This document shows, in pieces, positions 13,798 through 32,000 of a stretch of DNA of 32,000 nucleotides. The notes below the pieces were generated by a model that was given only the letters and a program-made list of their open reading frames with translations, was not told the DNA's origin and ran no database searches. This DNA comes from Nostoc punctiforme PCC 73102 (GTDB lineage Bacteria; Cyanobacteriota; Cyanobacteriia; Cyanobacteriales; Nostocaceae), in the NCBI RefSeq assembly GCF_000020025.1, contig NC_010628.1:3240001-3272000 (forward strand), given 5' to 3'. The number at the start of each line of letters is the position of its first letter. The first letter of the stretch is position 1. Made by a program: the position numbers and the translations under genes.

Positions 13798-14184
13798 TTA
13801 TTCTGAATACAAAAGTTGATATCCCAAGCTTAACCGCCTAACGAATTCTTCAGTATTTCGATTGCCCCAGACTGGATTTTTATGATCGATAAGCCAGTTT
13901 TGGGAATTGTGACAAATCTGTGTGTGGCATCTTTCGCATGTTGGAAACCAGTTGCTTCCTAAATTATTTTTACCGTAACTGGTATGGTGTAACTCATTAT
14001 ACTTTCGTCTCAAACAGCAGCAACACAAGGAATCATACTTTTCAAGAAACTGACGAGCGATCGCACACTCTCTACTGTAATTGTTGCCGTAGCGCACCGA
14101 GTAATCTAATTGCGGTTTAGTAGGTACTCGTGCAGTAGTTCTACTTGTTTGCTGCTTGGTGCGTGTCCCATCATTTCTTCCCAT
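13798..14184 (-). CDS. HNH-superfamily (Cys/His) nuclease-like protein
   Basis: 128 aa, ATG start. CCCCLRRKYNELHHTSYGKNNLGSNWFPTCERCHTQICH fits the C..C...HH.tY....CxxCH pattern. It overlaps the 3' end of the ATPase gene by 79 nt and is paralogous in layout to 18801-19172. Confidence 0.6.
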   Translation of the reverse strand: MGRNDGTRTKQQTSRTTARVPTKPQLDYSVRYGNNYSRECAIARQFLEKYDSLCCCCLRRKYNELHHTSYGKNNLGSNWFPTCERCHTQICHNSQNWLIDHKNPVWGNRNTEEFVRRLSLGYQLLYSE

Positions 14185-15791: not shown

Positions 15792-16363
15792 CAATATCTC
15801 CTAATCATCTTCCAAAGAACTGGTAATAAGGCCAAACCTAAAGATGCTCCCATCACAATCTGCAATTGCAAGTTGATAGTCAGTCCATCGGTAGGCTGTA
15901 CTTTGATTTCGTAGTTTTTTACTTCAACTTCAAAAGCTTGAATTGATTCATTGGCATATTGCATAAGCTGTCTGTATTCCTTAGTGGTATTCCATGAAAT
16001 ACCAGCAGAAGCTATTAACTTACTACAGCCAAATACTACTCGTGAAATATCTCGTACTTTGTACTCGTTTGAAAGGTCAATTCCAGCTTCTCCGATGTCA
16101 ATCATGGCGGGAATGGAGCCAAGAGAAAATCCCAACAATCCCGCGCTCATTGCTCCTAAGCCCAAATCAATGGCTAGGAGACATAGAGTTATGTTGGCAG
16201 AATTCGCAGTCAATGTAAGTAAAAAATTACGAATTAGTGTAAACGTCGCACAAGCAGATAAATAATCTTTCTCTAGACGATCTAAATAATCTTGATATTC
16301 ACGAGGCAGTTGACTTGCTTGGGAGTCCTCCTGCTGGTCTATAACGTCCGTTTCAAGTAACAT
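15791..16363 (-). CDS. Polytopic membrane protein, translationally coupled to the FtsK-like ATPase
   Basis: 190 aa, ATG start. Hydrophobic stretches LLAIDLGLGAMSAGLLGFSLGSIPAMI and MGASLGLALLPVLW. Confidence 0.65.
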   Translation of the reverse strand: MLLETDVIDQQEDSQASQLPREYQDYLDRLEKDYLSACATFTLIRNFLLTLTANSANITLCLLAIDLGLGAMSAGLLGFSLGSIPAMIDIGEAGIDLSNEYKVRDISRVVFGCSKLIASAGISWNTTKEYRQLMQYANESIQAFEVEVKNYEIKVQPTDGLTINLQLQIVMGASLGLALLPVLWKMIRRY

Positions 16364-19783: not shown

Positions 19784-20008
19784 TTAGTCATCCTGCTTTG
19801 TTCTTTTGTGTAAATTTGCAAATGCGGGTGATTCGTGTTCTCTCTCAAGAATTTGCCTAAGTAGCGTGGCCATCGGGATCTTTTTCCACTCAGCCACAGC
19901 TTGAAATTCTTCGTAAGCCTTCTCCGAAAGGGTGATGGTCATCTGAAATCTATCTTTGTCTTTGTCTGCCATTGGCTGTAAACCGTGTAATTCCATCACA
20001 TTATCCAT
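19784..20008 (-). CDS. Ribbon-helix-helix (CopG/Arc-like) DNA-binding protein, first gene of an operon
   Basis: The track start at 20032 is TTG. The first in-frame ATG is at 20008, with alternatives at 19996 and 19972. RFQMTITLSEKAYEEFQAVAEWKKIPMATLLRQILERE fits a beta-strand plus two helices RHH pattern. Confidence 0.6.
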   Translation of the reverse strand: MDNVMELHGLQPMADKDKDRFQMTITLSEKAYEEFQAVAEWKKIPMATLLRQILEREHESPAFANLHKRTKQDD

Positions 20009-20070
20009 GCATTTGCATCTCCATGCACTCAATAGCTTAAGAATTTTCTAAAACAAAGCATAACACATTC

Positions 20071-20095
20071 ATCACAATTGCGTGGTAATTGTGAT
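20071..20095. promoter_or_regulatory. Perfect inverted repeat ATCACAATT-N7-AATTGTGAT, candidate operator upstream of the RHH gene
   Basis: Arms at 20071-20079 and 20087-20095, located 63-87 bp upstream of the ATG at 20008 on the - strand. Confidence 0.45.
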
Positions 20096-20206
20096 GGATA
20101 TGAGAAGACAGTATGATAAAACAATGGCAGCAATGATTAAACCAAAATTCCAAGTAGGCGATCGCCTTTGCTAACGCCAGCGATCATAAAAAGTGACCTT
20201 TCAGGC

Positions 20207-20241
20207 AAAAGCCCTCCTGAATAACTTTTCAGGAGGGTTTG
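20207..20241. terminator. Bidirectional terminator-like hairpin
   Basis: AAAAG CCCTCCTGAA (20212-20221) taactt TTCAGGAGGG (20228-20237) TTT. Confidence 0.55.
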
Positions 20242-20320
20242 CTGATAAGAGAACTGCTGACTTCGGGGGTATTCAAGGGAAGCAAAGCCACATACATCTG
20301 AGCGATCGCAGATGGTGAGT

Positions 20321-20358
20321 TAAAAGTTGTTTGGGGCTTCTTCATCACCCCAAACAAC
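20321..20358 (-). terminator. Rho-independent terminator of the lysis/FHA operon
   Basis: Perfect 11-bp stem GTTGTTTGGGG (20326-20336) / CCCCAAACAAC (20348-20358). On the - strand the stem is followed by TTTTA. It lies 80 nt downstream of the stop at 20439. Confidence 0.6.
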
Positions 20359-20438
20359 CGTAAAACAACGAACTGCCATGAAAGGAGCGATCTCCCTTAT
20401 TCAAGAAGGACTAGCAAAATTAATCAAAATTATCTAAC

Positions 20439-20957
20439 CTATAGCGAAGTTGATTGAATTTTCTCAACATCAGCTTGGAGTTTTCCTAGTTCCGAGCGCA
20501 TATTAGCGATCGCCAGTACAATCTCACCCTGCTTGGTAATCACAGCTAGCGCCGCCCCATGCTCTGCTAGCTTGTCTTTGTTTTCAAATATTTGGTCATA
20601 CAATCTGCCAATATCCCCTTTATTAAAATTGCTTTGCTCTTTCAAGGAAGTTAACTGCTGGTGAATCAAGTTTAGTTGTTGATCGTGTACTGAATCGCGC
20701 CGATCGCTATCCGCCTCAACTTTGCCGATCGCTTCTTCCAATCCTTTACTGACACTAGCGATCGCCCCTTCAATCTTGCTTTCCCTAGAATCTTGAACCT
20801 GCCAAGCTGCGATCGCTAAAGCAGCAATTCCAATATAATTTCCAGTATCGCTGGGTTTAAACGAGAATGGCATCCCATGAAAAAATAGAATGACAATTAA
20901 CCCAGCAATCAATATTAATAAAAATTTATTCTTGAATATTAGTTGAAAAAGTCCCAT
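20439..20957 (-). CDS. Membrane protein (2 TM) with a cytoplasmic/periplasmic coiled coil
   Basis: 172 aa, ATG start. FLLILIAGLIVILFF and YIGIAALAIAAW, then a helical Q/E/L-rich region. Overlaps the FHA gene by 32 nt. Confidence 0.6.
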   Translation of the reverse strand: MGLFQLIFKNKFLLILIAGLIVILFFHGMPFSFKPSDTGNYIGIAALAIAAWQVQDSRESKIEGAIASVSKGLEEAIGKVEADSDRRDSVHDQQLNLIHQQLTSLKEQSNFNKGDIGRLYDQIFENKDKLAEHGAALAVITKQGEIVLAIANMRSELGKLQADVEKIQSTSL

Positions 20958-21318
20958 CTTCTTTAATATCTGTTATTTCATTTAAAAAGATAGCTTTAGG
21001 ATATTGGCGCGGGCCAAAAGTAATCGTGTCTTGATGCTTTAAATCAGCTTGACTTACTCTAGTTCCGTTAATCCAAACCCCGTTGGTGCTTTTGCTTTCT
21101 GGAATCATCAGCAACCCATCTATTACGAGGTAATAGGGGGTCTTTTTGCCCCTATTTGGCGGCATCAATACAAAGGTACAATGTTGGCGAGAAACAAATC
21201 TATCAATGACCAAAATGTCGCAGCTAGAGTGTTTTCCCAGGACGTAAATAGATAAATTTAAATCGTAGGTGATAGGAGGGAGATCGTTATCTAAATAAAT
21301 TAATAGCTGATAACGCAT
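20926..21318 (-). CDS. FHA (forkhead-associated) domain protein
   Basis: 130 aa: YVLGKHSSCDILVIDRFVSRQHCTF...VIDGL...SKSTNGVWINGTRV...LKHQDTITFG matches the G-R...S-x-x-H...S-x-N-G...N-G FHA signature. Confidence 0.75.
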   Translation of the reverse strand: MRYQLLIYLDNDLPPITYDLNLSIYVLGKHSSCDILVIDRFVSRQHCTFVLMPPNRGKKTPYYLVIDGLLMIPESKSTNGVWINGTRVSQADLKHQDTITFGPRQYPKAIFLNEITDIKEDGTFSTNIQE

Positions 21319-21358
21319 AACAAGAAATTAACATTACCTGTTCATGGTAACGATACTG

Positions 21359-21622
21359 TTATTTTTTTGGCGGGTCTTGGATTGAATCAATATTGACATT
21401 GCCCCTGACATTTGTAGAATCACTGCTACCACCCCTTGCTAATCCTCCGGCTGCTGCGATCGCTCCTACTCCTGCATTTATTACCAATGCTTGATTTGCT
21501 GAGTTTATCCCAGGCGCGATCGCCGCAACAATAATAATAAAAAGACCAGTCAACGCCAGAAAACCGGGGGTGCTGGCCTGAATAATCTCAGGGTTCCATC
21601 GAGCGGAGTCGAGATGTTTCAC
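21359..21622 (-). CDS. Holin-like small membrane protein
   Basis: 87 aa. GTG start overlapping the TGA of the hydrolase gene (GTGA). Two hydrophobic helices (GFLALTGLFIIIVAAIAPGI; ALVINAGVGAIAAAGGLA) and a polar tail. The function is inferred from position. Confidence 0.45.
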   Translation of the reverse strand: MKHLDSARWNPEIIQASTPGFLALTGLFIIIVAAIAPGINSANQALVINAGVGAIAAAGGLARGGSSDSTNVRGNVNIDSIQDPPKK

Positions 21623-22431
21623 AGCTTGTCACCAGAGATAATGGTCGTCAAGAAAACATAGTTATCGTTGGCTTGATAACGCAGGTCAGATTTCACGACT
21701 TTCATAAATTCCAAATGCCCAACAGTCTGCTGCCCAACCAAGCACCCAGCACTAGCACCATCTACGTGAGCCATATCATAACCCCAGTGCTGGTTAACGG
21801 CGTAGTCACTCCCCTGTACAACGCGATCGCCTGTTCGCATTCCGTCTTTATTTTTATCCCTATACCCGACAATTTCCCCACACTGCACCAAAGCTTCATG
21901 GGTTTTGTGCCACCCTACTCGCCAAGCTTTGTATTGCCCAAAGGCGATTCTGAAAGCGCCATCAGGGTTAAGAGGAGCATTGGTGTATTTTAATCCGGGT
22001 TCGGTGGTGGCTACCCATTTGTGGGCGATCGCGGGGATATTTTTATTTACTACAAGGATTAATCTTAAATCGTTCCACTCGTTCATGGCATCGGCGTTGG
22101 GCGTGCCATCAGGATCGCACCCCTCTGCATACACAATATTAGGGTGATTCTCGTCAATCCAATAGTCTTGAGAAAGCATATACTTGGCGATCTTGCTTGC
22201 AAAATCACCTTTACTCAAATCGAGTTGTGGCTGTGGAAGAGATTTTAGTTGCAGGAGTTCGTCTGTTACTTCAATGCTTTTTGTGATGTGCAAGAGTTCG
22301 GCGATCGCCCCAATGGTTTGTGGACCAACTTTACCGTCAGCCACACCAGAGAGTAATTTTAAATTAATTAGTAGTTGCTGTACTTGCACTGCTAACTTGG
22401 TGTCAGCAGCAATTTCAGAAATAGTTGTCAT
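21619..22431 (-). CDS. Peptidoglycan-binding cell-wall hydrolase (putative endolysin)
   Basis: The N-terminus VQVQQLLINLKLLSGVADGKVGPQTIGAIAEL is a PG_binding_1-type motif. The C-terminal domain has NQHWGYDMAHVDGASAGCLVG, an H...SxGC motif reminiscent of YkuD-type active sites (tentative). Confidence 0.55.
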   Translation of the reverse strand: MTTISEIAADTKLAVQVQQLLINLKLLSGVADGKVGPQTIGAIAELLHITKSIEVTDELLQLKSLPQPQLDLSKGDFASKIAKYMLSQDYWIDENHPNIVYAEGCDPDGTPNADAMNEWNDLRLILVVNKNIPAIAHKWVATTEPGLKYTNAPLNPDGAFRIAFGQYKAWRVGWHKTHEALVQCGEIVGYRDKNKDGMRTGDRVVQGSDYAVNQHWGYDMAHVDGASAGCLVGQQTVGHLEFMKVVKSDLRYQANDNYVFLTTIISGDKL

Positions 22432-22526
22432 ACGCCACCAAGCTTACAATTAACTTGGCGCTCTCCCGCGCTTGCTTGATTGTGGCTTCTGGTATTTTTT
22501 TTTACCACTGCAAGTTCACTGAAAGC

Positions 22527-22554
22527 AAAAAGACAGGGATTTCCCTGTCTTTTG
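22527..22554. terminator. Bidirectional terminator-like hairpin
   Basis: AAAA GACAGGGA tt TCCCTGTC TTTT, downstream of the - strand gene ending at 22739. Confidence 0.55.
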
Positions 22555-22580
22555 GTATTTGTACTGGAATAAGCTAAAAT

Positions 22581-22658
22581 CAATACGCGTAGGCGTTCGC
22601 GCAGCGTCTCGTAGCTTGCCGCCGCAGGCATCGCTTTTACCCTACAAAATGCGTATTG
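22581..22658 (-). repeat. MITE-like small dispersed repeat, copy B (with 8-bp terminal inverted repeats)
   Basis: CAATACGC (22581-22588) ... GCGTATTG (22651-22658). The reverse complement aligns with copy C through GCGATGCCTGCGGCGG and CTACGAGACGCTGCGCGA(A/T)CGCCT. It creates the spurious ORF 22428-22631 (..YETLRERLR..). Confidence 0.7.
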
Positions 22659-22738
22659 TGGGCGGACAGGGATCGCCCTAAAGATTCCTTACCTGCCCCA
22701 TCGGGACATGACACAGATATTGACTATTTCGGCATCAC

Positions 22739-22933
22739 CTAATCCAGTGGTTTCTGGTGAATTGTAGCTTCTACAACTTCTATTAATTTGTGAGCAATAT
22801 TCCTGATAAAGATAATTCTTGGGTGTTGGCTATTAAGCAAAATCTCTTCATCTGTTGTGTAACCATAATGCTTGGCTTGAATCGTTAAAAAGCTTATTAA
22901 CAAATCCTCTTTTTGCTTGTAGCTGAATTTCAT
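22739..22933 (-). CDS. Hypothetical small protein
   Basis: 64 aa, with an ATGA overlap onto the HAD gene. Confidence 0.5.
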   Translation of the reverse strand: MKFSYKQKEDLLISFLTIQAKHYGYTTDEEILLNSQHPRIIFIRNIAHKLIEVVEATIHQKPLD

Positions 22934-23481
22934 GAATCACCTCCAAATTCTTTGCGCCAATTTTCAGCCCACATGAATTTGCATTCCATAGCCGAAGCAC
23001 ATTCCAAATCTTCAGGGCGATCGCCCACCATAACCATCTCCTCAACATCTTCACCACCATCCTCTACAAACAGTTTCACAAGTTTAAGCATTCCTGCATT
23101 TGGTTTGCGAAATTCCCCAATTAATTGCATTTCTCTATCACTAGTTTCGTAGGCATCAAACTGAGAAACTTTCCAGCAATCGTTACCTTCAAAATCGGGA
23201 CAAAAATAAATTGCTGTTAATTGGGGCAGTAGTTCAAGGGTGAATTGCATCTCAGCGATAGTGCCCTCAATTGTTTTGCGAGGTTTACCTGTTTCTGGAT
23301 TAATTGCAGCACATCCGCCTTGATTAGAGATTCCCACAATTAGCCATCCCAACGCAGCAAAGTGCGCGATCGCCTTATCTGCACCATCAATTATTTTTAC
23401 ATCAGTTGGCGACTGCTTAAAAGTGTGTCCACTGATGGTTTCTGTTAAAGTTCCGTCAATATCGACAAATAAAATGTTCAT
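22930..23481 (-). CDS. HAD-IIIA family phosphatase (GmhB / HisB-N / polynucleotide 3'-phosphatase-like)
   Basis: All four HAD motifs are present: FVDIDGTL, VGISNQGG, FRKPNAGM, MVGDRPEDLE. Confidence 0.75.
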   Translation of the reverse strand: MNILFVDIDGTLTETISGHTFKQSPTDVKIIDGADKAIAHFAALGWLIVGISNQGGCAAINPETGKPRKTIEGTIAEMQFTLELLPQLTAIYFCPDFEGNDCWKVSQFDAYETSDREMQLIGEFRKPNAGMLKLVKLFVEDGGEDVEEMVMVGDRPEDLECASAMECKFMWAENWRKEFGGDS

Positions 23482-23577
23482 CCTATTAACCTCAGTAGCT
23501 ATAAAACAACACGAATTTTAAACTTTAAAAGAAAAACCCACAGATGATAAATATTAGCCTCATCAAAAAACTTTGAT

Positions 23578-24177
23578 TCAGGAGGGAATACCTCCAGCGC
23601 AACTATCAGACGGAAAAATTGAAGCAGGAGTAATATTGATTGGCGTTAACAAATCCGAATAATTACGTAAAATGCCTCCAATTGTAACTGTCTTTACATT
23701 AGGTACTCTTTGAGATAATTGCAAAATAACTGCTTCATTTGAGCAATATTTCGCAGATTCAGATATTAAACCTATCAATAAATCTTGCTCAGGGTTTAAT
23801 CTTTTTACACTTACAGTTGGACTATAGTCAACCCTTAAAGACCGCTGCCACACTTCAGCCCATTTCTTTTGCGATAAATACCCGTGACCAAAATACGAAG
23901 CTTTCACTATCATTAAAATATGAAAGCAAGGGCGAATATTACCACCACATCTTTGAGTCACCTCAACAAACTTAATCCACCCTATTCCTGGGAAAATTTT
24001 AAGCTTAACTAACCTACGAAGTGATTCGTTCATCAAATCTAAAGTTGTTCGTAACAATTCATCGGATGAACAGTCATTCGCCAGAAGAGTCAAAGATACC
24101 CACCGCGCATTGGAATAATCAGCCAAAATCTGAGGTAAAATTCTATAAATTTTATTTTTTGCATGAGACTTTACCAA
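23578..24177 (-). CDS. Rolling-circle replication initiator-like protein (pC194/pUB110 Rep_1 type), N-terminally short with a non-ATG start; possibly a pseudogene
   Basis: Motif 1 WVSLTLLAND (compare FLTLTxxN). Motif 2 RPCFHILMIV (compare HPHFHVLI, with Cys in place of the first His). YF..GYLSQKKWAEVWQRSLRVDYSPTVSVKRL. Motif 3 ESAKYCSN (compare ExxKYxxK). The only possible starts are TTG 24177 or CTG 24180. It is in the same frame as the upstream ORF, separated from it by TAG-GAA-TAA. Confidence 0.55.
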   Translation of the reverse strand: MVKSHAKNKIYRILPQILADYSNARWVSLTLLANDCSSDELLRTTLDLMNESLRRLVKLKIFPGIGWIKFVEVTQRCGGNIRPCFHILMIVKASYFGHGYLSQKKWAEVWQRSLRVDYSPTVSVKRLNPEQDLLIGLISESAKYCSNEAVILQLSQRVPNVKTVTIGGILRNYSDLLTPINITPASIFPSDSCAGGIPS

Positions 24178-24189
24178 CAGCGTTTATTC

Positions 24190-24732
24190 CTATTTTTTGC
24201 TAACCAGCCATTCTTTTTTATGGTCGCCAATCATGAGAAAAACAAAGTTCCCATACCTAAAATAACCATCTTTGCAAGTCGGTAATCTTTTGTAATCTAA
24301 TATTTTTAACACAACGTCTCTTGGTAAAATTACTCTGCCAGATGACATCTTCTCCAAGAAAGCATAACCAGCAAGCCATTTAGCTAGCCTTGGCAGGTTT
24401 TCATACTCACAAGTAATATACAGCAAGTCAACTGTAGTCAGAGGGAATAATCCTGTGCTTTCTGCTAATTCCATCTGTTCACTTTTAATTGAATCAGTTG
24501 GATGGATTGATTGGATGGATTGATTGGATGATTGATTAATTGGATAGTTTAATTCATGGGCGGATCTATCCAAAACACCTAATTGGTACATTCTAATGAA
24601 AGTCTTGCGTCCTTCCTTGAAACTATTCACACCAGCATTTTCAAGAAATTTGTTTAAGGTTGTACGGCTTTTAATGCCGTAACGAAGCATAACGTCTTCA
24701 GTGCTGACTGACTGTAAATCTAAAGTATCCAT
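24190..24732 (-). CDS. HTH-containing hypothetical protein upstream of (and in frame with) the Rep-like ORF
   Basis: The track start at 24744 is GTG; an ATG is at 24732 (MDTLDLQSVSTEDVMLRYGIKSRTTLNKFLENAGV, HTH-like). Contains a Q/S/N low-complexity linker encoded by a 13-bp tandem repeat. Confidence 0.55.
   Translation of the reverse strand: MDTLDLQSVSTEDVMLRYGIKSRTTLNKFLENAGVNSFKEGRKTFIRMYQLGVLDRSAHELNYPINQSSNQSIQSIHPTDSIKSEQMELAESTGLFPLTTVDLLYITCEYENLPRLAKWLAGYAFLEKMSSGRVILPRDVVLKILDYKRLPTCKDGYFRYGNFVFLMIGDHKKEWLVSKK
24498..24535. repeat. Imperfect 13-bp tandem repeat inside a CDS (TTGGATGGATTGA x2 + TTGGATGATTGA)
   Basis: Read directly from the sequence. It encodes NQSSNQSIQSIHP on the - strand. 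Confidence 0.8.
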
Positions 24733-24753
24733 CCATTCATCCACCCAGTTAGT

Positions 24754-25665
24754 TTATCGTGTTTTGTGAATATCTGGAAATTTTCTCACTTGTAAATCTT
24801 CTGGAAACTCTGAAATATCGCCACCTTTGCGATCGCTCGTTTTAAATTGGTAATCGGTGCTTGGTACGCCAGCGATATAAGGCAATGATTCGATACAATT
24901 ACTGCCCAACTGTTTTACAAAAACTGGAACCTCAGCAGCTTGACACTGCCTAGTAAGCGATCGCACCCAGTCGATGTGGCAAACTCTTGCATCTTTCCCT
25001 GACTCACCACCAACGATGACCCAATCTGGTGATGATTCCCACCTTGACCCTACTTTTAAGGCAAATTTACCTTCCTCATATTCATACAGCCCAAATACCT
25101 CAGATAAATCGATTTCTTCTAAAAGCGGTTCACAACTAAGAAAACGCACCTTAGCAGGAATTTGCAATAGAATAGGAATGCGTTTGTCTGCCATTTCTTG
25201 ATTTTCACAAGTTACTCCAAACCACACATTTTTAAGTGGGAGTTCTGGCTTACAAACTAGATTTCCAGCATCTTTAATTCTTTGCGCTAAATTAAAATTC
25301 TGAAAATACTTCAGAGCGTTCAATGGACGTTTAGTTAAAACCTGGAATATGTGCCAGTGCGCTGCTGCCATTATTCCGAAAACGCGATCGCGCCACTGGT
25401 CTGGCACGTTTTCATGGAATAAATCGCTCATTGAGCAAACAAATATTCGTTTAGGCTTCTTCCATGACAAAGGCTTGAGTAGTGCCGATTCTGCAAATTC
25501 TACAGTTCCATTCCAATCTTTTACTTTTTGGTATTGTGGAAATTGTTGCAGTCTTGCGGATGCTGCTGCTGTGGATGCATAGCAATTTTGACATCCTGCG
25601 GAAATGCGAGAACACCCAACTATCGGGTTAATAGTCTCATCTGTCCAAGAAATATTTGTACTCAT
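24754..25665 (-). CDS. Phage Gp37/Gp68 family protein (DUF5131)
   Basis: The N-terminus TNISWTDETINPIVGCSRISAGCQNCYAS, FVCSMSDLFHE, FQVLTKRP, WFGVTCENQ, FLSCEPLLE and DWVIVGGESG form the characteristic pattern of this family. Confidence 0.8.
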   Translation of the reverse strand: MSTNISWTDETINPIVGCSRISAGCQNCYASTAAASARLQQFPQYQKVKDWNGTVEFAESALLKPLSWKKPKRIFVCSMSDLFHENVPDQWRDRVFGIMAAAHWHIFQVLTKRPLNALKYFQNFNLAQRIKDAGNLVCKPELPLKNVWFGVTCENQEMADKRIPILLQIPAKVRFLSCEPLLEEIDLSEVFGLYEYEEGKFALKVGSRWESSPDWVIVGGESGKDARVCHIDWVRSLTRQCQAAEVPVFVKQLGSNCIESLPYIAGVPSTDYQFKTSDRKGGDISEFPEDLQVRKFPDIHKTR

Positions 25666-25768
25666 TTTTCTTCTTTAACTAAGTATTATTTGCTGCATCT
25701 TCATCAAGGCATCGACTAACCCATCGATAGACTGCATCAGATTCACTCATCCCTTGAGCGATCGCCCT

Positions 25769-25848
25769 TAATACATTTTGTTCGTAAGAGGCGATGCCTG
25801 CGGCGGGCTTCTCTACGAGACGCTGCGCGATCGCCTGCGCCTATCGAC
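25769..25848 (+). repeat. MITE-like small dispersed repeat, copy C
   Basis: taatacattttgttcgtaagaggcGATGCCTGCGGCGGgcttctCTACGAGACGCTGCGCGATCGCCTgcgcctatcgac. It creates the N-terminus of the spurious ORF 25778-26122 (..YETLRDRLR..). Intergenic. Confidence 0.7.
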
Positions 25849-25889
25849 CTCTCATCATCCTCTTGAAAAGGCGATCGCTGTATCCTGTG

Positions 25890-26582
25890 CTAGACATCAA
25901 AATTTTTCTGCAACTTCCCTACAAAATCCAACAATTCTGCATCAGTTAAAAGGCTTCGCCCTACCTTGCTATAATTTTTTAACAGGTATTCTTTGCCTTG
26001 AGAAGCGCTCCAGTTCAAGTCAGCAATCAGGCGATCGCTCTCTGCTAGTAACGTTTCTCGTGAGGCTTTTGGTGGTTGGCTCTTTACCAAAGAGGGGGGA
26101 GCGTTATTACCCTCAAGCCTAGCTTTAGTATCCTGGATAATTCCCGCCCAGTCAGCGCTAGGGTTCCATTCTGCTTTTACTCTAGATTTAGTCGTCGCGT
26201 CATAAACGCGACAAAAAACCACGTTTTCTTCACCAGCAGCGCAGCCAATAATTAGAGGTTTAGTAAGGTCTTCAACGAGGGCGATCGCAAGTAGAAATGT
26301 TTTTGCAAAGTTGGTTTCAACGCCAGTACGGATAATATAGGTTTCGTTGGAGTTAATAACGATATCAAGCTTGACGTTTTCTTTGCCCTTGAACTCCCTA
26401 GATGTTAACCGCAACTCCGATAAATAGCCGCACAGCCCCGTATTGTATTCGGGCGTTATTTTTTCTTTGTCAAAGTCGTAGTAGTACCATGTGTAACCGT
26501 TGCCTTCCATCTCTCCACTTTTGATGTAGAGATATATTGGTTCAGGCGCTTTACAAAACCCTAATTTAATTTCAGTCGTCAT
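25890..26582 (-). CDS. Hypothetical protein
   Basis: 230 aa, ATG start, within the early leftward operon. No motif recognised. Confidence 0.6.
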   Translation of the reverse strand: MTTEIKLGFCKAPEPIYLYIKSGEMEGNGYTWYYYDFDKEKITPEYNTGLCGYLSELRLTSREFKGKENVKLDIVINSNETYIIRTGVETNFAKTFLLAIALVEDLTKPLIIGCAAGEENVVFCRVYDATTKSRVKAEWNPSADWAGIIQDTKARLEGNNAPPSLVKSQPPKASRETLLAESDRLIADLNWSASQGKEYLLKNYSKVGRSLLTDAELLDFVGKLQKNFDV

Positions 26583-26653
26583 ACTTTTTTAAACTCCACA
26601 ATCCATAGGACGGGTGCGATCGCCAATTGAGTTAAAAAGCGATCGCCCTTGAA

Positions 26654-27244
26654 TCAAGAAAGTTGTTCCATCAACAAACCTATTTCTATTACTTGATTTT
26701 CTAGAAGTTCATTGCTGACAACAAACTGTTCATAATTGAAAAGCAAGTCTTTATAAAATTCGTACTGCTCTTTTCCCCATAGTTCAGGGGATTGAGAGTA
26801 ACACCTAATATTGTGCAATTTGTCAGCAATACTGACTCGAATTGCTGAGTTAGAAAAGCAGCAAACTGATTCAATATAACGGGACTTGCGCTCTTTTTTG
26901 GGAAGCGCTTTATCCTCACTCAACTCTTGGACAATTTTGCAAACATTTTCCCCAAATTTTTCAATGATTAACCGGGGTTCAACCTGGACATCCTCAATTG
27001 CATCGTGAAGGAGAGCAGCGATCGCCTCATCCTCATTTCCACCAGCTTCTAATACCAAACTGGCAACTGCTAGTAAATGCGAAATGTAAGGTGCTTTTGT
27101 ACCACCTTTGCGGACTTGATGAAGGTGCGCTTGATGAGCGAATACTAAGGCTTCGGAGAAGCGATTTGTGAGAATTGGTGAATCAGTGAAATTTGCCATA
27201 TTATGTTTGAATTTGAATAGTTGTGTTGAGCGTAGCAGAAACAT
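26654..27244 (-). CDS. HD-domain small alarmone hydrolase (SpoT/RelA-type (p)ppGpp hydrolase domain only)
   Basis: ALVFAHQAHLHQVRKGGTKAPYISHLLAVASLVLEAGGNEDEAIAALLHDAIEDV matches the H..Q.R..G.PYI.H...VA......G.D...I.AALLHD..ED signature. An alternative ATG lies at 27199. Confidence 0.75.
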   Translation of the reverse strand: MFLLRSTQLFKFKHNMANFTDSPILTNRFSEALVFAHQAHLHQVRKGGTKAPYISHLLAVASLVLEAGGNEDEAIAALLHDAIEDVQVEPRLIIEKFGENVCKIVQELSEDKALPKKERKSRYIESVCCFSNSAIRVSIADKLHNIRCYSQSPELWGKEQYEFYKDLLFNYEQFVVSNELLENQVIEIGLLMEQLS

Positions 27245-27250
27245 ACGGTT

Positions 27251-27287
27251 TAGTGAGATCGCCCGTTTTAAAAGGGCGATCTCACTA
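27251..27287. terminator. Perfect 14-bp-stem hairpin between two co-directional genes (terminator/attenuator or RNA processing site)
   Basis: TAGTGAGATCGCCC (27251-27264) gttttaaaa GGGCGATCTCACTA (27274-27287). There is no clear U-run on the - strand, so the terminator function is uncertain. Confidence 0.35.
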
Positions 27288-27290
27288 GAC

Positions 27291-28175
27291 TCAGGAAAGT
27301 TGTTTCATTAATTGTTTTTTAAATCTAGTTCCACTTCCCAAACAAGGGCCGCAATCTGGCCCACCATTATTTTGGGGCGTATATTCTGCAACGGCAGTGC
27401 ATTCTACATCTCGCCTACCATCACCCCTGTTGCAGATTTCCTTGGCATGGATAGGCATCATACATTGGGCGACTAGAGCTATACCTAGTGCTGCCGATGC
27501 ACAAAACTTCATGATGCTCATGCTCACAAGGGGCTTTTGGCAAACGAGTAGCGCCGATTCATGCAAATCCGCCACTGCTTCTTGGGGAGTGGCAAACGTA
27601 GTGAAGCTTTGATTATGCTCCCAAAAACACTGCCAAGTCATTTTGATTTCGCCCATTGGAATGCCATCATCAAGCACGTTCCAAGCGGCGACGTAATCAC
27701 CACCAACCTGAATGCATCGAAGTAAATAATTACCTATAAAATGGCTATCCCCAACTTTGGGCTGATTGTCCGCTGGCAAATCTTCATGGAATAAGTAATC
27801 ATCAACCTGCTCCGGTTGAGGGCTTGGCAAGGTTCCCTGCTTATAATGCCAGCGCACGTAATCATAGCAGCGTGCCCAGGTAGCGTTACGGTGTACCTCT
27901 ACTCCTTCGATTTTGACTACCCAAGGCTGGGTTAATTCTTCGTCATTGGTGATGGTGGCGATCGCCTTCCCTTCAACCAAACAGGTATCGCCATCCATTT
28001 CTACTAATGGTTTCGGCGCAACAACTGGTTGAGGCTGTTTAGCTAAAATCGCTTCAATCCAAGATTGCTTAAGGCGCTTGTCTTGGGCTGCTGCACCTAA
28101 TTGGGAGGCGATCGCCTTTAATTCTTGGAGGGTTTTGCCTTCTAACCGTTGCTGTGTATAAAGATGCTGTGTCAT
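27291..28175 (-). CDS. Hypothetical protein with an N-terminal Rho_N/SAP-like motif and a C-terminal signal-peptide-like plus Cys-rich tail
   Basis: The track ORF is trimmed to the ATG at 28175 (MTQHLYTQQRLEGKTLQELKAIASQLGAAAQDKRLKQSWIEAIL). The C-terminal 76 aa are MSIMKFCASAALGIALVAQCMMPIHAKE...PDCGPCLGSGTRF. Confidence 0.6.
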   Translation of the reverse strand: MTQHLYTQQRLEGKTLQELKAIASQLGAAAQDKRLKQSWIEAILAKQPQPVVAPKPLVEMDGDTCLVEGKAIATITNDEELTQPWVVKIEGVEVHRNATWARCYDYVRWHYKQGTLPSPQPEQVDDYLFHEDLPADNQPKVGDSHFIGNYLLRCIQVGGDYVAAWNVLDDGIPMGEIKMTWQCFWEHNQSFTTFATPQEAVADLHESALLVCQKPLVSMSIMKFCASAALGIALVAQCMMPIHAKEICNRGDGRRDVECTAVAEYTPQNNGGPDCGPCLGSGTRFKKQLMKQLS

Positions 28176-28267
28176 GATAGTTTGTACCTGATGTTTGTAT
28201 AAGGTTCCAAGAGGCGATTGCGTGCCGTGGTAAGTAGGCGATCGCCTTTTTGGTTGTCTGTATCTAA

Positions 28268-28322
28268 TGTAATGCCACAATCATGCTACTGTCAATACCA
28301 AAAGCATTACACTTGTCATTAC
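28268..28322. promoter_or_regulatory. Candidate operators in a divergent promoter region: TGTAATGC / GCATTACA inverted repeat plus a third half-site
   Basis: TGTAATGC at 28268-28275 and GCATTACA at 28304-28311 (8-bp arms, 28-bp spacer). GTCATTAC at 28315-28322. The sites lie between the divergent starts at 28175 (-) and 28360 (+). Confidence 0.45.
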
Positions 28323-28359
28323 GTTCAGATATTGCTAATTTGAGGGTATTGATAAGGGT

Positions 28360-28629
28360 ATGATCATGGCAAAAAGAGACAGGACGTTTGTTCAAGTACA
28401 AGTAGATCCGGATAAAAAGAACAGGTTTGCCGAGAAACTGGAGGGAGAGGGCAAGAAGATAACGGATATCATCAATCAGTGGATTGATGAATATCTTGGT
28501 GAATCACCCGCTGATGTCGATGTGACGGAATTAAAAAACAATGTTGCTCTGCTACAAGAGCGCTTATCTGTTCTAGAGCAAGCTTTTCAGACAAAGGAGA
28601 AAGAATACCAGGGGGAATCCGTCGCCTGA
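28360..28629 (+). CDS. Ribbon-helix-helix-like regulator with a C-terminal coiled coil (candidate lysogeny/immunity regulator)
   Basis: 89 aa, ATG start. RTFVQVQVDPDKKNRFAEKLEGEGKKITDIINQWIDEYL has an RHH-like pattern, followed by LKNNVALLQERLSVLEQAFQTKEKE. It is divergent from the early leftward operon. Confidence 0.55.
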   Translation: MIMAKRDRTFVQVQVDPDKKNRFAEKLEGEGKKITDIINQWIDEYLGESPADVDVTELKNNVALLQERLSVLEQAFQTKEKEYQGESVA

Positions 28630-28689
28630 GAGACGAGAACGCATCTCTCAGGCAAATACACGAAAAACTTAAAGAACTGCTTCATGAAA

Positions 28690-28720
28690 AACCCGCCAAC
28701 GATTTGGCGGGTTAATTTTT
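28690..28720 (+). terminator. Rho-independent terminator
   Basis: AACCCGCCAA (28690-28699) cgat TTGGCGGGTT (28704-28713) AATTTTT. Confidence 0.75.
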
Positions 28721-28768
28721 GGTGTAGCATGGCAATGGTATTACAAAACCATGATTGAATTATGAACA

Positions 28769-28972
28769 ATGGGCAAAAGAAAATTAAAGCCTGGCGATCG
28801 CGTTGTTTTTGAGTCTCACGATGAGCAGTGTAAGCCATTTCAGCAATTTGGTACTGTAAAACACTATGTTTATCCAGATTTTCACCCAAATGGATACATT
28901 GAGGTGGTGGATAGTGATGGCGACACAATTCTTTATGGTAATGCAGGTAAAGGAATTCAGAAAGTCAAATAA
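28769..28972 (+). CDS. Hypothetical small protein
   Basis: 67 aa, ATG start (MGKRKLKPGDRVVFESHDEQCKPF...). A competing - strand ORF was rejected. Confidence 0.5.
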   Translation: MGKRKLKPGDRVVFESHDEQCKPFQQFGTVKHYVYPDFHPNGYIEVVDSDGDTILYGNAGKGIQKVK

Positions 28973-28990
28973 CAAAAACAGAAAATTGCT

Positions 28991-29131
28991 ATGAAATATA
29001 TCAACGAAATAACACGACAAATTTGCATTTTGATAGAGCGCACTATGGCAATAGCACCTTATTCCTTGGTTGAATATTCCGATGGTACCCGCAAGCTCGA
29101 ACACTGCGCTAATTTAAAAAGATTGGAGTAG
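28991..29131 (+). CDS. Possible small ORF (46 aa), not in the track
   Basis: MKYINEITRQICILIERTMAIAPYSLVEYSDGTRKLEHCANLKRLE*. It is co-directional with its neighbours, but there is no supporting motif. Confidence 0.25.
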   Translation: MKYINEITRQICILIERTMAIAPYSLVEYSDGTRKLEHCANLKRLE

Positions 29132-29241
29132 ATATTTTGTCTAAGCTACAAAAACTGACTTTCGTCCAATATATAAAATTTTATTAAGTGGAAGTAGTCG
29201 CTTTTGATAAAAGTATTTTTGTACTATAAAAATTTAAAATA

Positions 29242-29421
29242 ATGACAGTTGAGGAATTAATTACTGAATTACAATCTTTTCCTTTAGATATGGAAGTACA
29301 GATCCGCGCCTCACGTAGCCAGTTAGAAATTGATTCAATCCATGTAGATAGTATAGGCAAGATAGTAGAGATAGACATTGGGGATATAGATATCGGTCAT
29401 GAATATGACGATGAATATTAA
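29242..29421 (+). CDS. Small acidic hypothetical protein (59 aa), not in the track
   Basis: MTVEELITELQSFPLDMEVQIRASRSQLEIDSIHVDSIGKIVEIDIGDIDIGHEYDDEY*. Preferred over the two overlapping - strand ORFs, which have odd low-complexity translations. Confidence 0.4.
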   Translation: MTVEELITELQSFPLDMEVQIRASRSQLEIDSIHVDSIGKIVEIDIGDIDIGHEYDDEY

Positions 29422-29511
29422 GTGACGAAATACTAATTATGCCGCCCTGACAGAGGCGGAAAGCAAGCCTTTGCATTTATCAGGGCAATCCCATTGTACT
29501 AAATAGGAATT

Positions 29512-29718
29512 ATGACTGAAAACTATCCACTTTATATAAAGCTTTCTGTTCAGAAGTTAAACCAGATTACGGCAACCGACGACTACGATCCAACAGACAA
29601 TCTAGACCATGAGGGCTACACAAATCGCCCAGAGTGCCCAAACTGCGGTTCTCATGATATTGTCTGGGATGAAATGGAGGAAGCCAATCGATGTGAGGAA
29701 TGCGATTGGTTTGGCTAA
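29512..29718 (+). CDS. Small Zn-ribbon protein
   Basis: 68 aa. CPNCGSHDIVWDEMEEANRCEECDWFG (two CxxC pairs). Confidence 0.55.
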   Translation: MTENYPLYIKLSVQKLNQITATDDYDPTDNLDHEGYTNRPECPNCGSHDIVWDEMEEANRCEECDWFG

Positions 29719-29747
29719 TTGGAGCCACCAGAAGACAAAATGGAATT

Positions 29748-29969
29748 ATGACTCACAGATTTGATGATGATGGCGGTGATAATTACAACGGTGACGATGA
29801 CTGGGAACCTGGATCGCACAATAACCCTTGCCAACTGTATGATGATTGTCTTAGGGTTTGCCCTTTCTGCCACGGCAAAGGCAAGAGTCGCAGTTTATTT
29901 GATTATAAAAATTTTGATGAATTCATTTCAGAGAAATGCACACCTTGTAATGGATCTGGGTATCGTTAA
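29748..29969 (+). CDS. Small protein with two DnaJ-type CxxCxGxG zinc-finger motifs
   Basis: The track ORF is trimmed to the ATG at 29748 (MTHRFDDDGGDNYNGDDDW...). Contains CPFCHGKG and CTPCNGSG. Confidence 0.55.
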   Translation: MTHRFDDDGGDNYNGDDDWEPGSHNNPCQLYDDCLRVCPFCHGKGKSRSLFDYKNFDEFISEKCTPCNGSGYR

Positions 29970-29992
29970 GTGCAAAATGGAGATTTTGACAA

Positions 29993-31333
29993 CTAAATTT
30001 TAAAAAGTACCGAACTAACCACTCCGTCTTTAATAATCACTTTTTCTATCAACGCCCGAAATATTACCCGCTTTTCATCATCTGGCAGCGTATGCCAATA
30101 CAAAGGATCGGGGAACGATTTGAGCATATCAATTCTAGAATCAGTTTCAACTTGGCGATCGCCCAAGCTATAAACAAATTCATTGATGCGTCGCTGTAAC
30201 TTGGTTTTTGCATCCTCAATGTCTGGATCGTACCCTAATTGAGATAAAGCAGTTAGGCGCGATCGCAGTTGCATCAACTCTTGGGGTTCTATGGTGGTGG
30301 CGGTAATACCGGCAAAATTAACAATTTCCCTAGATTTTTTGACCAACATTGAAATCACTGCATCTTCCACGATTTCAATACGCGGCGTGCGTCGTTGTGA
30401 ACAAGTTTGAGATTGAATGCGCTGTTTGCGGCGGCGACAATAAACATAGATTCTTTCATTAGGGGCAGTTCCCCCGTGTGCCACGGTCATCTTAATTTGG
30501 CATTCGCCGCAGAACATCAACCCCCCCAAAGGATACTGTCTAGCGATGCGGTTTTGGCCCCAGTACTGTTTGTTATTTTGGAAAATCTCACAAATGACCC
30601 GATATTCAATTTCAGTCATCACCGCTTGATCGGAATGGGTATTGTGAATTATGGTTTCCCATTGTTCGTAGGTGCGATTATAGGGTGTGTGTCCTCGGAG
30701 CGTGGGATTAAGCAACCAGCGCCGCAAACCGTTGGCCGTCCACTGCTTACCATATTTCTCATCAATTAATCGGCAAGCGCCTTGGAGCGATCGCACCGCC
30801 AAAAATGCCTCAATTTGACCACGGGCGTTGACTTTGGGGTCAAGTTGGTATTTTTCATCTACTCGAATGTAGCCGTAGGGTGGCTTAGGATTAGCTTTTA
30901 CCTTTTCACGGAAGTATTCAAACCCCTTTTTAATCCTCATACTCAGCATTCGGCTTTCAAATTCGGCATTTAGCCCAGCTTGACTGCGCTGTAGCCATTG
31001 ATAGGGATTAGCAAGGTCAATCAGTCCGCCAGCATCTAATATCTCTAGCTGCACTTCACACCGAAAAAATGTTTCTAAGATTTGCAAAGTTGTGATTCCC
31101 CGCCTTGTAATGCGATCGTCACGGGTAATGCACACACAACTTACTTGGCGCGATCGCACCAATGCCATCAATTTTTCAAATTCAGGTCGGTCATCATCAC
31201 TCCCTGATTGAATATCAAAAAATATTTCTTGGCAGCCAGCACGCTCTAGTCGGTTAATTTGTTGGGCAGCCGCATGAGTACAATCAGCTTGCTCGTTTGT
31301 CGAAACCCTTCCGTAACCTAGTTTTTGTTTCAT
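29993..31333 (-). CDS. Large serine recombinase (integrase), XisF/SpoIVCA/phiC31 class
   Basis: 446 aa. The N-terminus KLGYGRVSTNEQ is the catalytic Ser motif of the resolvase domain, with ITRDDRITRRG. The recombinase domain and Zn ribbon (FCGECQIKM...YVYCRRRKQ) and a C-terminal helical region follow. It is the last gene of the element. Confidence 0.9.
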   Translation of the reverse strand: MKQKLGYGRVSTNEQADCTHAAAQQINRLERAGCQEIFFDIQSGSDDDRPEFEKLMALVRSRQVSCVCITRDDRITRRGITTLQILETFFRCEVQLEILDAGGLIDLANPYQWLQRSQAGLNAEFESRMLSMRIKKGFEYFREKVKANPKPPYGYIRVDEKYQLDPKVNARGQIEAFLAVRSLQGACRLIDEKYGKQWTANGLRRWLLNPTLRGHTPYNRTYEQWETIIHNTHSDQAVMTEIEYRVICEIFQNNKQYWGQNRIARQYPLGGLMFCGECQIKMTVAHGGTAPNERIYVYCRRRKQRIQSQTCSQRRTPRIEIVEDAVISMLVKKSREIVNFAGITATTIEPQELMQLRSRLTALSQLGYDPDIEDAKTKLQRRINEFVYSLGDRQVETDSRIDMLKSFPDPLYWHTLPDDEKRVIFRALIEKVIIKDGVVSSVLFKI

Positions 31334-31370
31334 TTGCCGTTTTAACTCTCACTACAGTGAAGCCTTAGAT

Positions 31371-31931
31371 ATGATGGGAGTTGCTCTCAGTAATAAATGT
31401 AAATATGAAGTTGATAATCATCCTTGGCAAAATCCAATTACTACTGTAGGTATAACTGTGTTACCTAAAGGCGATTTATTGCATCACAAATTTGGTGTAA
31501 TAGATAGCCAAACAGTAATTACAGGTTCTCATAATTGGTCAGACGCTGCCAATAATGGTAACGATGAGACACTTGTAGTAATTGAAAATCCCATAGTTGC
31601 GGCTCACTATGTGCGAGAATTTGCTCGTCTTTATGCCAAAGTTAAACCCGGCTTACCACCAGCAATTCAAGAAAAGGTGAAATTAGAACAAACACGCTGT
31701 CCCCAGATCAAAAGTTCTTCATCAAGTGAACTACAAGCAATTAAACAAATAAATATTAATATTGCAAGTTTGCCAGAATTAGAAACTCTCCCTGGCGTGG
31801 GTAAGAAGTTAGCACAACGGATAATTCTTAGCCGTCAACAGCAAAAGTTTACATCTTTACAAGACTTAGAAAGAGTTCCAGGGGTTAAGGCGAAGACATT
31901 GGAAAAATGGCGCGATCGCGTGGTTTGGTAG
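31371..31931 (+). CDS. 3' portion of an interrupted host gene: PLD-family (HKD) nuclease domain fused to a ComEA-type HhH DNA-binding domain
   Basis: The HKD motif LLHHKFGVIDSQTVITGSHNWSDAANNGNDE starts at residue ~36 of the ORF, which is too close to the N-terminus for a complete PLD fold. C-terminus LPELETLPGVGKKLAQRIILSR...LQDLERVPGVKAKTLEKWRD. The frame stays open upstream to 31317, inside element sequence. Confidence 0.65.
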   Translation: MMGVALSNKCKYEVDNHPWQNPITTVGITVLPKGDLLHHKFGVIDSQTVITGSHNWSDAANNGNDETLVVIENPIVAAHYVREFARLYAKVKPGLPPAIQEKVKLEQTRCPQIKSSSSSELQAIKQININIASLPELETLPGVGKKLAQRIILSRQQQKFTSLQDLERVPGVKAKTLEKWRDRVVW

Positions 31932-31952
31932 CAGTTTTTGTTTAAAAAATAA

Positions 31953-31983
31953 GATCCCCGACCTCTCAAAGAAGTCGGGGATC
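31953..31983. repeat. Host-type hairpin repeat GATCCCCGAC-N11-GTCGGGGATC (possible terminator of the PLD/ComEA gene)
   Basis: Arms at 31953-31962 and 31974-31983, located 22 bp after the stop codon. This palindromic unit is, to my recollection, a common intergenic repeat in Nostoc/Anabaena-type genomes. Confidence 0.6.
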
Positions 31984-32000
31984 TGGGGCACACAAATTAA

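Follow-up and report, generated by a model that had tools for sequence, protein, structure and literature searches.

What does a large serine recombinase gene do next to a nuclease gene that seems to lack its beginning? The question is raised by a 32-kb stretch of NC_010628.1 from Nostoc punctiforme PCC 73102, a heterocyst-forming cyanobacterium (the whole stretch is called the window hereafter). Two divergent open reading frames (ORFs) lie near its right end, one for the recombinase (29993-31333, minus strand) and one for a 186-amino acid (aa) protein with phospholipase D (PLD) and ComEA-type domains (31371-31931, plus strand). Their ATG codons, at 31333 and 31371, are 37 bp apart. The original prediction had placed the ORFs at these coordinates and with this spacing, and took them as one junction of an element that splits the nuclease gene of a heterocyst-type cyanobacterium, as N. 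punctiforme indeed is, and that may be excised during development. We ask here whether the gene is split, whether the element leaves it precisely, and whether it does so in terminally differentiating cells. The window very probably holds the attachment site attR, together with the right-hand 31 kb of a temperate-phage-type element of about 72.7 kb, which splits a 543-aa gene and can be excised, and not in heterocysts only.

The element and its junction have already been published, in the form of a catalogue entry. S1 File Table B of Hilton, Meeks & Zehr 2016 (PLoS One, PMC4874684) lists 'Nostoc punctiforme PCC 73102 #1', a 72.656-kb element (NC_010628 3198696-3271351) within a phospholipase D/transphosphatidylase gene, with the repeat CTACA, the gene position 1053, and a xis gene of the serine type (Npun_R2637) located 18 bp from the end in opposite orientation. 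In the window, CTACA (31352-31356) is found exactly 18 nt past the recombinase ATG, and this core begins at nt 1053 of the uninterrupted gene of a close relative. Since all values of the entry match the window, the feature has to be considered known. The searched passages of PMC4874684 hold no excision evidence, gene content or comEA/competence link for element #1, and the literature on the locus tags, the run accessions and prophage excision in N. punctiforme yielded nothing beyond Hilton et al. Our additions are modest but concrete: the four att sites, the excision seen in public data, the inventory of phage and Rep genes, and the probable identification of the target as comEA. The features by which Hilton et al. 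(2016) recognise gene interruption are all present, namely an ORF contiguous in orthologues, a direct repeat, and a recombinase gene within 3 kb of the element's end.

The interrupted gene and the recombinase

The 186-aa product (ACC81192.1 by exact look-up) covers just positions 66-131 of the 132-position PLDc_2 profile, together with a complete HHH_3 domain. Having only half of the PLDc_2 profile, it is 5'-truncated, as the original prediction had proposed. The frame upstream of 31371 is open back to 31317, as also described there, with a stop codon at 31314-31316. A relative with 95% DNA identity (contig L004) possesses the gene in an uninterrupted form. Similarity between this contig and the window starts at ...CGTCC-CTACA-GTGAAGCC..., within the codons for YRPYSEALDMMG. 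The insertion point, codon 352/353, falls midway along the second HKD domain. The truncation is much larger than the loss of about 50-60 residues implied at first: 352 codons are missing, which encode the lipoprotein signal, all of the first HKD domain and the N-terminal half of the second one, and the 186 aa represent the 3' third of a 543-aa gene.

The full 543-aa protein exhibits a lipobox (LAGC, residues 20-23), a first HKD domain, the motif of which is near residue 200, then a second PLDc_2 domain (residues 304-444) and an HHH_3 tail (E-value = 1.9e-16, residues 480-541), as well as TIGR00426 and TIGR01259 regions. Among solved structures, the PLD domains are nearest to Zucchini/MitoPLD and Nuc nucleases, and the helix-hairpin-helix (HhH) tail is nearest to ComEA (PDB chains 2duy and 8dfk). 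These domains agree with the prediction that the split gene encodes a PLD nuclease of the competence type, secreted and carrying a ComEA tail.

Intact copies are common among related genomes. In a genome scan using one genome per species, in which the best 80 loci (mostly Nostoc and a few other Nostocales) were considered, the gene was intact in 80 of 80, with about 540 aa and 81-93% identity, and no other interrupted copy was seen among them; protein searches, in contrast, returned no 540-aa orthologue. Both halves of the N. punctiforme gene are devoid of stops or decay, and their pairwise ratios of nonsynonymous to synonymous substitutions (dN/dS) against intact orthologues are 0.11-0.32. 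This state fits either a recent insertion or a continued use of the gene.

The 446-aa recombinase (ACC81191.1/WP_012409185.1, exact look-up) exhibits the Pfam Resolvase domain (E-value = 7.1e-24, residues 5-142), with the catalytic motif YGRVSTNEQ at residues 7-15, the Recombinase domain, which passes narrowly (21.7 bits for a cut-off of 21.1), and Zn_ribbon_recom (E-value = 1.4e-11). With all three profiles above the Pfam cut-offs, its earlier designation as a large serine recombinase stands. Its matches to solved structures (PDB) concern the catalytic domain only. The protein also matches the NCBIfam equivalog model NF041201 (recomb_XisF) over its full length, with 470.1 bits for a cut-off of 375, and is named 'fdxN element excision recombinase XisF' by NCBI. 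The name goes too far as regards function, since the element resides in a gene other than fdxN. One sigma-70-like site faces the recombinase gene from the host side; it was rejected as being at chance level (1 found for 1.6 expected).

Attachment sites, excision and its occurrence

Contigs assembled from public sequencing runs (Logan) contain the three other att sites. Most of the recombinase-bearing contigs share attR with the window (L001, L003). However, a 26-kb contig from SRR6394271 (L002) is 100% identical to window positions 19993-31356 and, after the last A of CTACA, diverges into a sequence encoding an XRE/HTH_3 protein. In N. punctiforme the latter bears the accession ACC81120.1, which precedes ACC81192.1 by 72 numbers. 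Two contigs (L087, L092) join the same HTH sequence, via the core, to a 355-aa 5' PLD fragment ending with ...FAYRPYKDG and a stop codon; the host genes past this fragment are the counterparts of those preceding the intact gene in L004. As L087 joins the HTH sequence to the 5' PLD half, it represents attL, and L002 represents attP, the junction of a circle or a concatemer. The missing 5' half is thus at the far end of the element, where it had been expected. Joined together, the two host sides make a 1632-nt ORF of 543 aa without any stop, and this exact protein is on record (P0233, 5 contigs).

The empty site, attB, with the uninterrupted gene, is carried by contigs L088-L090. On either side of the site these contigs show 100.000% identity, with the attL flank over 9910 bp and with the attR flank over 9982 bp. 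The four sites attL, attR, attP and attB exchange exactly at CTACA, and an alignment of the junctions rebuilds a clean attB and an intact gene from attL and attR. The predicted junction is real, with a large serine recombinase at the edge of an element that splits a gene, and the excision of the element is precise, scar-free and restores the gene; it has been sequenced several times unknowingly. The same contigs bear on the idea of an inert, decaying prophage remnant with a permanently inactivated gene. Such a remnant would accord with the many element ORFs without recognisable function and with a host-like density of HIP1 octamers, suggestive of long residence or host adaptation, but it is contradicted by the attP and scar-free attB contigs, and the recombinase ORF is intact, like the two halves of the gene. 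We regard it as very improbable.

Integrases of the phiC31/Bxb1 type act on an attP with an imperfect dyad of about 50 bp and a non-palindromic central dinucleotide, and on a different attB, the int gene being located beside attP. The N. punctiforme recombinase resembles them in its domain order (resolvase, recombinase, zinc ribbon), in the layout of its att sites and in the position of its gene adjoining attP, although the sequence relationship is distant. The attP is a clear imperfect dyad, made of TcATTTGCCGttTTAACtcTCaCT, the dinucleotide AC and the reverse complement of TgATTTGCCGccTTAACcgTCcTT, with 16/22 positions symmetric. Its centre is the AC of CTACA, at window positions 31354-31355. 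The dyad of attB is weaker (12/22), with AC as its best centre, tied with one other position. From this symmetry we infer that the AC at 31354-31355 is the crossover dinucleotide. A small dyad in the junction, TCACT-AC-AGTGA (31349-31360), had been proposed as part of the att core. It is composed of the inner half-site P and the inner half-site B', centred on the crossover AC, and belongs to the core in this sense. Chance would give about 30 such 5+5 dyads in 32 kb; the dyad is therefore not significant alone and takes its meaning from its position only.

The 446-aa recombinase presumably carried out the integration, and a scheme of the following kind may be proposed. The recombinase would insert the circular element by an attP x attB reaction at the AC of the CTACA core, and the reverse reaction, attL x attR, would excise it precisely with the help of a separate directionality factor. 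When the element is circular, the HTH gene directly precedes the recombinase gene, both being read in the same direction, and integration parts them. Integration would then cut the recombinase gene off from transcription coming from the HTH side, and its expression would change with the integration state. Once excised, the circle may persist or replicate through its own Rep_1 initiator. In growing cultures, excision would resemble that of a prophage or act as an episomal switch, or else it would differ between laboratory lineages; it would not be limited to heterocysts. The integrated element would knock out a probable ComEA of the DNA-uptake machinery.

How are the two states distributed? About 7 of the 21 contigs reaching the HTH end are of the attP type and 13 of the attL type, and about 4 of the 23 contigs reaching the recombinase end are of the attP type. 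The excised state clusters by project: SRR6394271 exhibits attP and SRR6394276 attB, and likewise SRR12750582/84 exhibit attP and SRR12750589 attB. The runs examined from the SRR8435xxx, SRR16479xxx and SRR5197xxx series exhibit the integrated state. In several whole-culture runs the dominant path of assembly, over contigs of 20-25 kb, is that of the excised state. Contigs of this length with attB are not expected from an event in a small minority of cells such as heterocysts, which favours excision in growing cultures or a stable difference between laboratory lineages in which the circle is retained.

Excision confined to terminal cells is known from Bacillus subtilis, where SPbeta/SprA in spsM and skin/SpoIVCA in sigK are excised in the terminal mother cell under the control of dedicated directionality factors. 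The N. punctiforme element shares with them a large serine recombinase at the edge of a prophage or prophage remnant and a host gene that is split and then rebuilt; the tie to a terminal cell and the dedicated factors are known for SPbeta and skin only. A cyanobacterial precedent is the fdxN element of Anabaena/Nostoc sp. PCC 7120, which resides in a gene of the nif cluster and whose excision takes place in heterocysts and depends on xisH and xisI (PMC4874684). Like the fdxN element with its XisF, the present element exhibits an XisF-family large serine recombinase at its edge, a 5-bp core repeat and an ORF restored by excision. In contrast to it, the target is a competence-type nuclease gene, phage head genes are present, and no xisHI was seen near the recombinase.

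The developmental part of the original prediction has to be judged on this basis. It would have the element excised only in terminally differentiating cells, heterocysts or akinetes, with the nuclease gene expressed only there. Such a course would suit a host that forms heterocysts, a recombinase that passes the NCBI XisF equivalog model, and two gene halves that are intact and apparently constrained, and Hilton et al. (PMC4874684) raise the possibility for elements in non-nif genes. However, the split gene has no known role in nitrogen fixation, and the element carries a phage head module and its own Rep. XisH/XisI Pfam domains are absent among the 45 ORFs in the 31 kb beside the recombinase, the left 41 kb lying beyond this comparison. 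Finally, the excised path is dominant in several whole-culture runs and clusters by project. Excision itself is thus borne out by the attP and attB contigs, while the whole-culture assemblies and the lack of xisH/xisI in the 45 ORFs speak indirectly against its restriction to terminal cells. We consider this restriction distinctly unlikely, and prefer the reading of a temperate-phage-type element whose excision is not a heterocyst event only.

Two minor observations concern the left end of the element. Four contigs from different runs, of the attP and attL types (L091, L092, L094, L095), all end about 1.3 kb inside it. A common contig end about 1.3 kb beyond the HTH gene suggests a repeat, an insertion sequence (IS) or similar, that breaks assemblies. 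The left-end sequence yielded no match against IMG/VR.

Gene content of the element

The positions of the att half-sites and of the recognisable genes are given in Table 1. The sequence left of the junction had been called phage-type, and this description is supported by its head, portal, endolysin-like and DUF5131/phrog_2045 genes. A head-packaging module is present, in which Portal_Mu and Phage_Mu_F score above their cut-offs; the terminase match and a protease match also found among the phage-type proteins of the window are weak. The portal protein exhibits 24% identity, over 81-91% of the query, to proteins of the Pseudanabaena phages PA-SR01 and Pam2, the gene of Pam2 being annotated as portal. 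Many other ORFs of the element are without recognisable function. The 1405-aa head protein contains an internal ComEA-type HHH_3 domain (residues 414-472), of the same type as the tail of the interrupted gene.

Table 1. Features of the window, with their coordinates and the evidence for each
Feature	Position	Strand	Evidence or remark
Right-hand 31.35 kb of the element	1-31351	.	Total ~72.7 kb (72.656 kb in PMC4874684, S1 File Table B); left end outside the window
Mu-F-like minor head / head-morphogenesis protein, 1405 aa	4722-8939	-	Phage_Mu_F 9.7e-15; HHH_3 1e-10; PHROGs head morphogenesis / minor head families to 2e-21
Mu-type portal protein	8948-10306	+	Portal_Mu 5.7e-07, above cut-off
HTH_17 protein, 164 aa	12746-13237	+	N-terminal excisionase-type HTH_17, 3.4e-11
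Possible terminase large subunit (weak)	14106-15794	-	PHROG 2666, 6e-05
FHA-domain protein	20926-21318	-	
Phage protein with endolysin-like similarity	21619-22431	-	phrog_3000 4.6e-29; phrog_33083 (endolysin) 2.4e-14
PNK3P polynucleotide kinase-phosphatase-like protein	22930-23481	-	
Rep_1 rolling-circle replication initiator	23578-24177	-	Pfam Rep_1 2.6e-35
DUF5131/phrog_2045 phage-family protein	24754-25665	-	
HD_4 (RelA/SpoT-type HD) protein	26654-27244	-	
Large serine recombinase Npun_R2637, ACC81191.1, XisF family	29993-31333	-	446 aa; ATG 18 nt from core
Phage-derived half-site P of attR (TCATTTGCCGTTTTAACTCTCACT)	31330-31353	+	17/24 positions symmetric with P' across AC in attP
5-bp common core CTACA	31352-31356	+	Common to attL, attR, attP and attB
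Host-derived half-site B' of attR	31356-31379	+	Att-site alignment and symmetry
3' part of the host comEA-like PLD gene, core to stop	31357-31931	+	Annotated ORF 31371-31931, ACC81192.1
15-bp-stem hairpin and T run, terminator-like host feature	31952-31984	-	Between the convergent PLD and glycosyltransferase genes

The nearest matches of the Rep_1 protein are the Reps of 4-5 kb plasmids of Crinalium, Planktothrix and Picosynechococcus, with 38-41% identity. The initiator could let the excised circle replicate. A megablast search of 25 kb of the element against plasmids gave one 47-bp match only. The HTH_17 protein could be a directionality factor (excisionase) or a small terminase subunit; its gene is 17 kb from the recombinase gene and near the terminase-like gene.

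The element is compositionally host-like. The part of the window that belongs to the element has 57 copies of the HIP1 octamer GCGATCGC (1.8 per kb, with up to 3 per kb at 20-28 kb), against 0.83 per kb in the host flanks of L088, so that the element is at least as dense. Taken with the gene content, the element is best described as a host-adapted temperate cyanophage or phage-plasmid-like element.

The target gene as a probable comEA

The source databases name orthologues of the split gene 'competence protein ComE' or 'ComEA-like', and its product combines a C-terminal ComEA HhH DNA-binding domain with predicted export, given its lipobox. The comEA/comA gene of Synechocystis (slr0197) is likewise a long ORF (>844 bp), has a suggested nuclease role and is required for transformation. 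In a survey of competence factors, Nies et al. 2020 (PMC7292380, Table 4) report a ComEA value of 0.9 for N. punctiforme versus 1.3-1.4 in other Nostocales, ComEA being the sole factor below 1 among the 13 in N. punctiforme. The ratio 0.9/1.4 is 0.64, close to the 0.65 of 355/543, as expected if the best match in that survey was the 5' fragment. The split gene is probably the cyanobacterial comEA orthologue, and we infer that N. punctiforme owes its low ComEA score to the prophage.

The comK prophage of Listeria monocytogenes (A118/phi10403S) is a temperate phage with a serine integrase, the conditional and non-lytic excision of which is called 'active lysogeny'. In N. punctiforme, as in Listeria, a competence-type gene is split and precise excision restores it. 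The Listeria target is a regulator, however, whereas the present one is a probable periplasmic DNA receptor/nuclease, and conditional non-lytic excision is known in Listeria only. The analogy would provide a testable and more interesting, though so far conjectural, reading. Under it, the element would be excised reversibly without lysis and be kept as a Rep_1 episome while the ComEA-type gene is on, and then reintegrate. The competence-type target and the plasmid-type Rep are in keeping with such a cycle. Moreover, contigs of both kinds, attP and attB, come from the same projects, so that the element is kept after excision, and the gene order of the circle, with HTH ahead of the recombinase, would favour reintegration. 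On the other hand, condition-dependence, reintegration and a competence phenotype are all hypothetical, and the data also fit a fixed difference between laboratory lineages or ordinary spontaneous induction. We see in active lysogeny a possible but rather unlikely account.

Should it apply, the prophage would be a reversible on/off switch of natural competence in a multicellular cyanobacterium, with ComEA removed in the integrated state, and a Rep_1-driven episome and a rebuilt, expressed comEA-type gene in the excised one, a proposition that we hold to be doubtful. It would explain why N. punctiforme was scored as being without the full competence set, and would imply that excised lineages or conditions take up DNA; strains or conditions with the excised state might be naturally transformable.

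Several points weigh against the preferred reading of an excisable temperate-phage-type element splitting a probable comEA outside any heterocyst programme. Of tail and lysis genes, only the endolysin-like one was recognised in the window; the left 41 kb of the element lies outside, contigs covering about 1.3 kb of it. No phage particles are documented for this element, and no close relatives of the recombinase were found in IMG/VR. The attP junction could also arise from head-to-tail concatemers. Contigs exhibit the dominant assembly path rather than the share of cells in each state. The orthology to the Synechocystis ComEA (slr0197) is indirect, resting on the source names and the score in PMC7292380.

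Whether elements in non-nif genes are excised was left open by Hilton et al. (PMC4874684); for element #1 the answer is yes. Laboratories apparently keep N. punctiforme cultures differing in the state of the 72.7-kb element, which bears on the interpretation of resequencing and transcriptome data. The characterised attP/attB pair of a cyanobacterial serine integrase is also a possible tool for genome engineering in Nostoc.

Some homologues of the target gene are shorter than the intact form. Homologues of about 295 aa starting with MWGDG were considered as the full-length form and rejected, the intact gene being 540-543 aa. Many database homologues are fragments or frameshifted calls, and the L004 assembly is rich in frameshifts. 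Many homologues (P0006, P0130, P0132, P0141, P0150 and others) start or end near MWGDGPGGKPDS, some being frameshifted there; P0132 is shifted past MWGD and reads MWGDRREVSQ. These breaks may be sequencing errors, gene-calling artefacts or real breaks. P0132 was also rejected as the 5' half from the same strain, as it is a lone 996-bp contig from another sample.

Breaks at defined sites were seen in two further cases; PMC4874684 lists just one variant for this PLD gene. In a contig of another cyanobacterium (L101:1880-2000; JGI metagenome 3300049486, Ga0499989_000100; 68% aa identity) the gene is broken at the same place as in N. punctiforme, the homology starting at gene nt 1053 (...CTATCTAAA/GTGAAGCC). 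The neighbouring element gene encodes a 471-aa IS110-like protein (DEDD_Tnp_IS110, weak), not a serine recombinase. The nt-1053 site may be a recurrent target. A second break site, inside the second HKD motif, with homology from gene nt 1189, is found in Anabaena lutea (L102:5940-6060, JACJST010000019.1) and also in Anabaena sphaerica (P0027). No recombinase occurs there within 6 kb; the sequence upstream contains unannotated genes and an HTH_3/Peptidase_M78 regulator.

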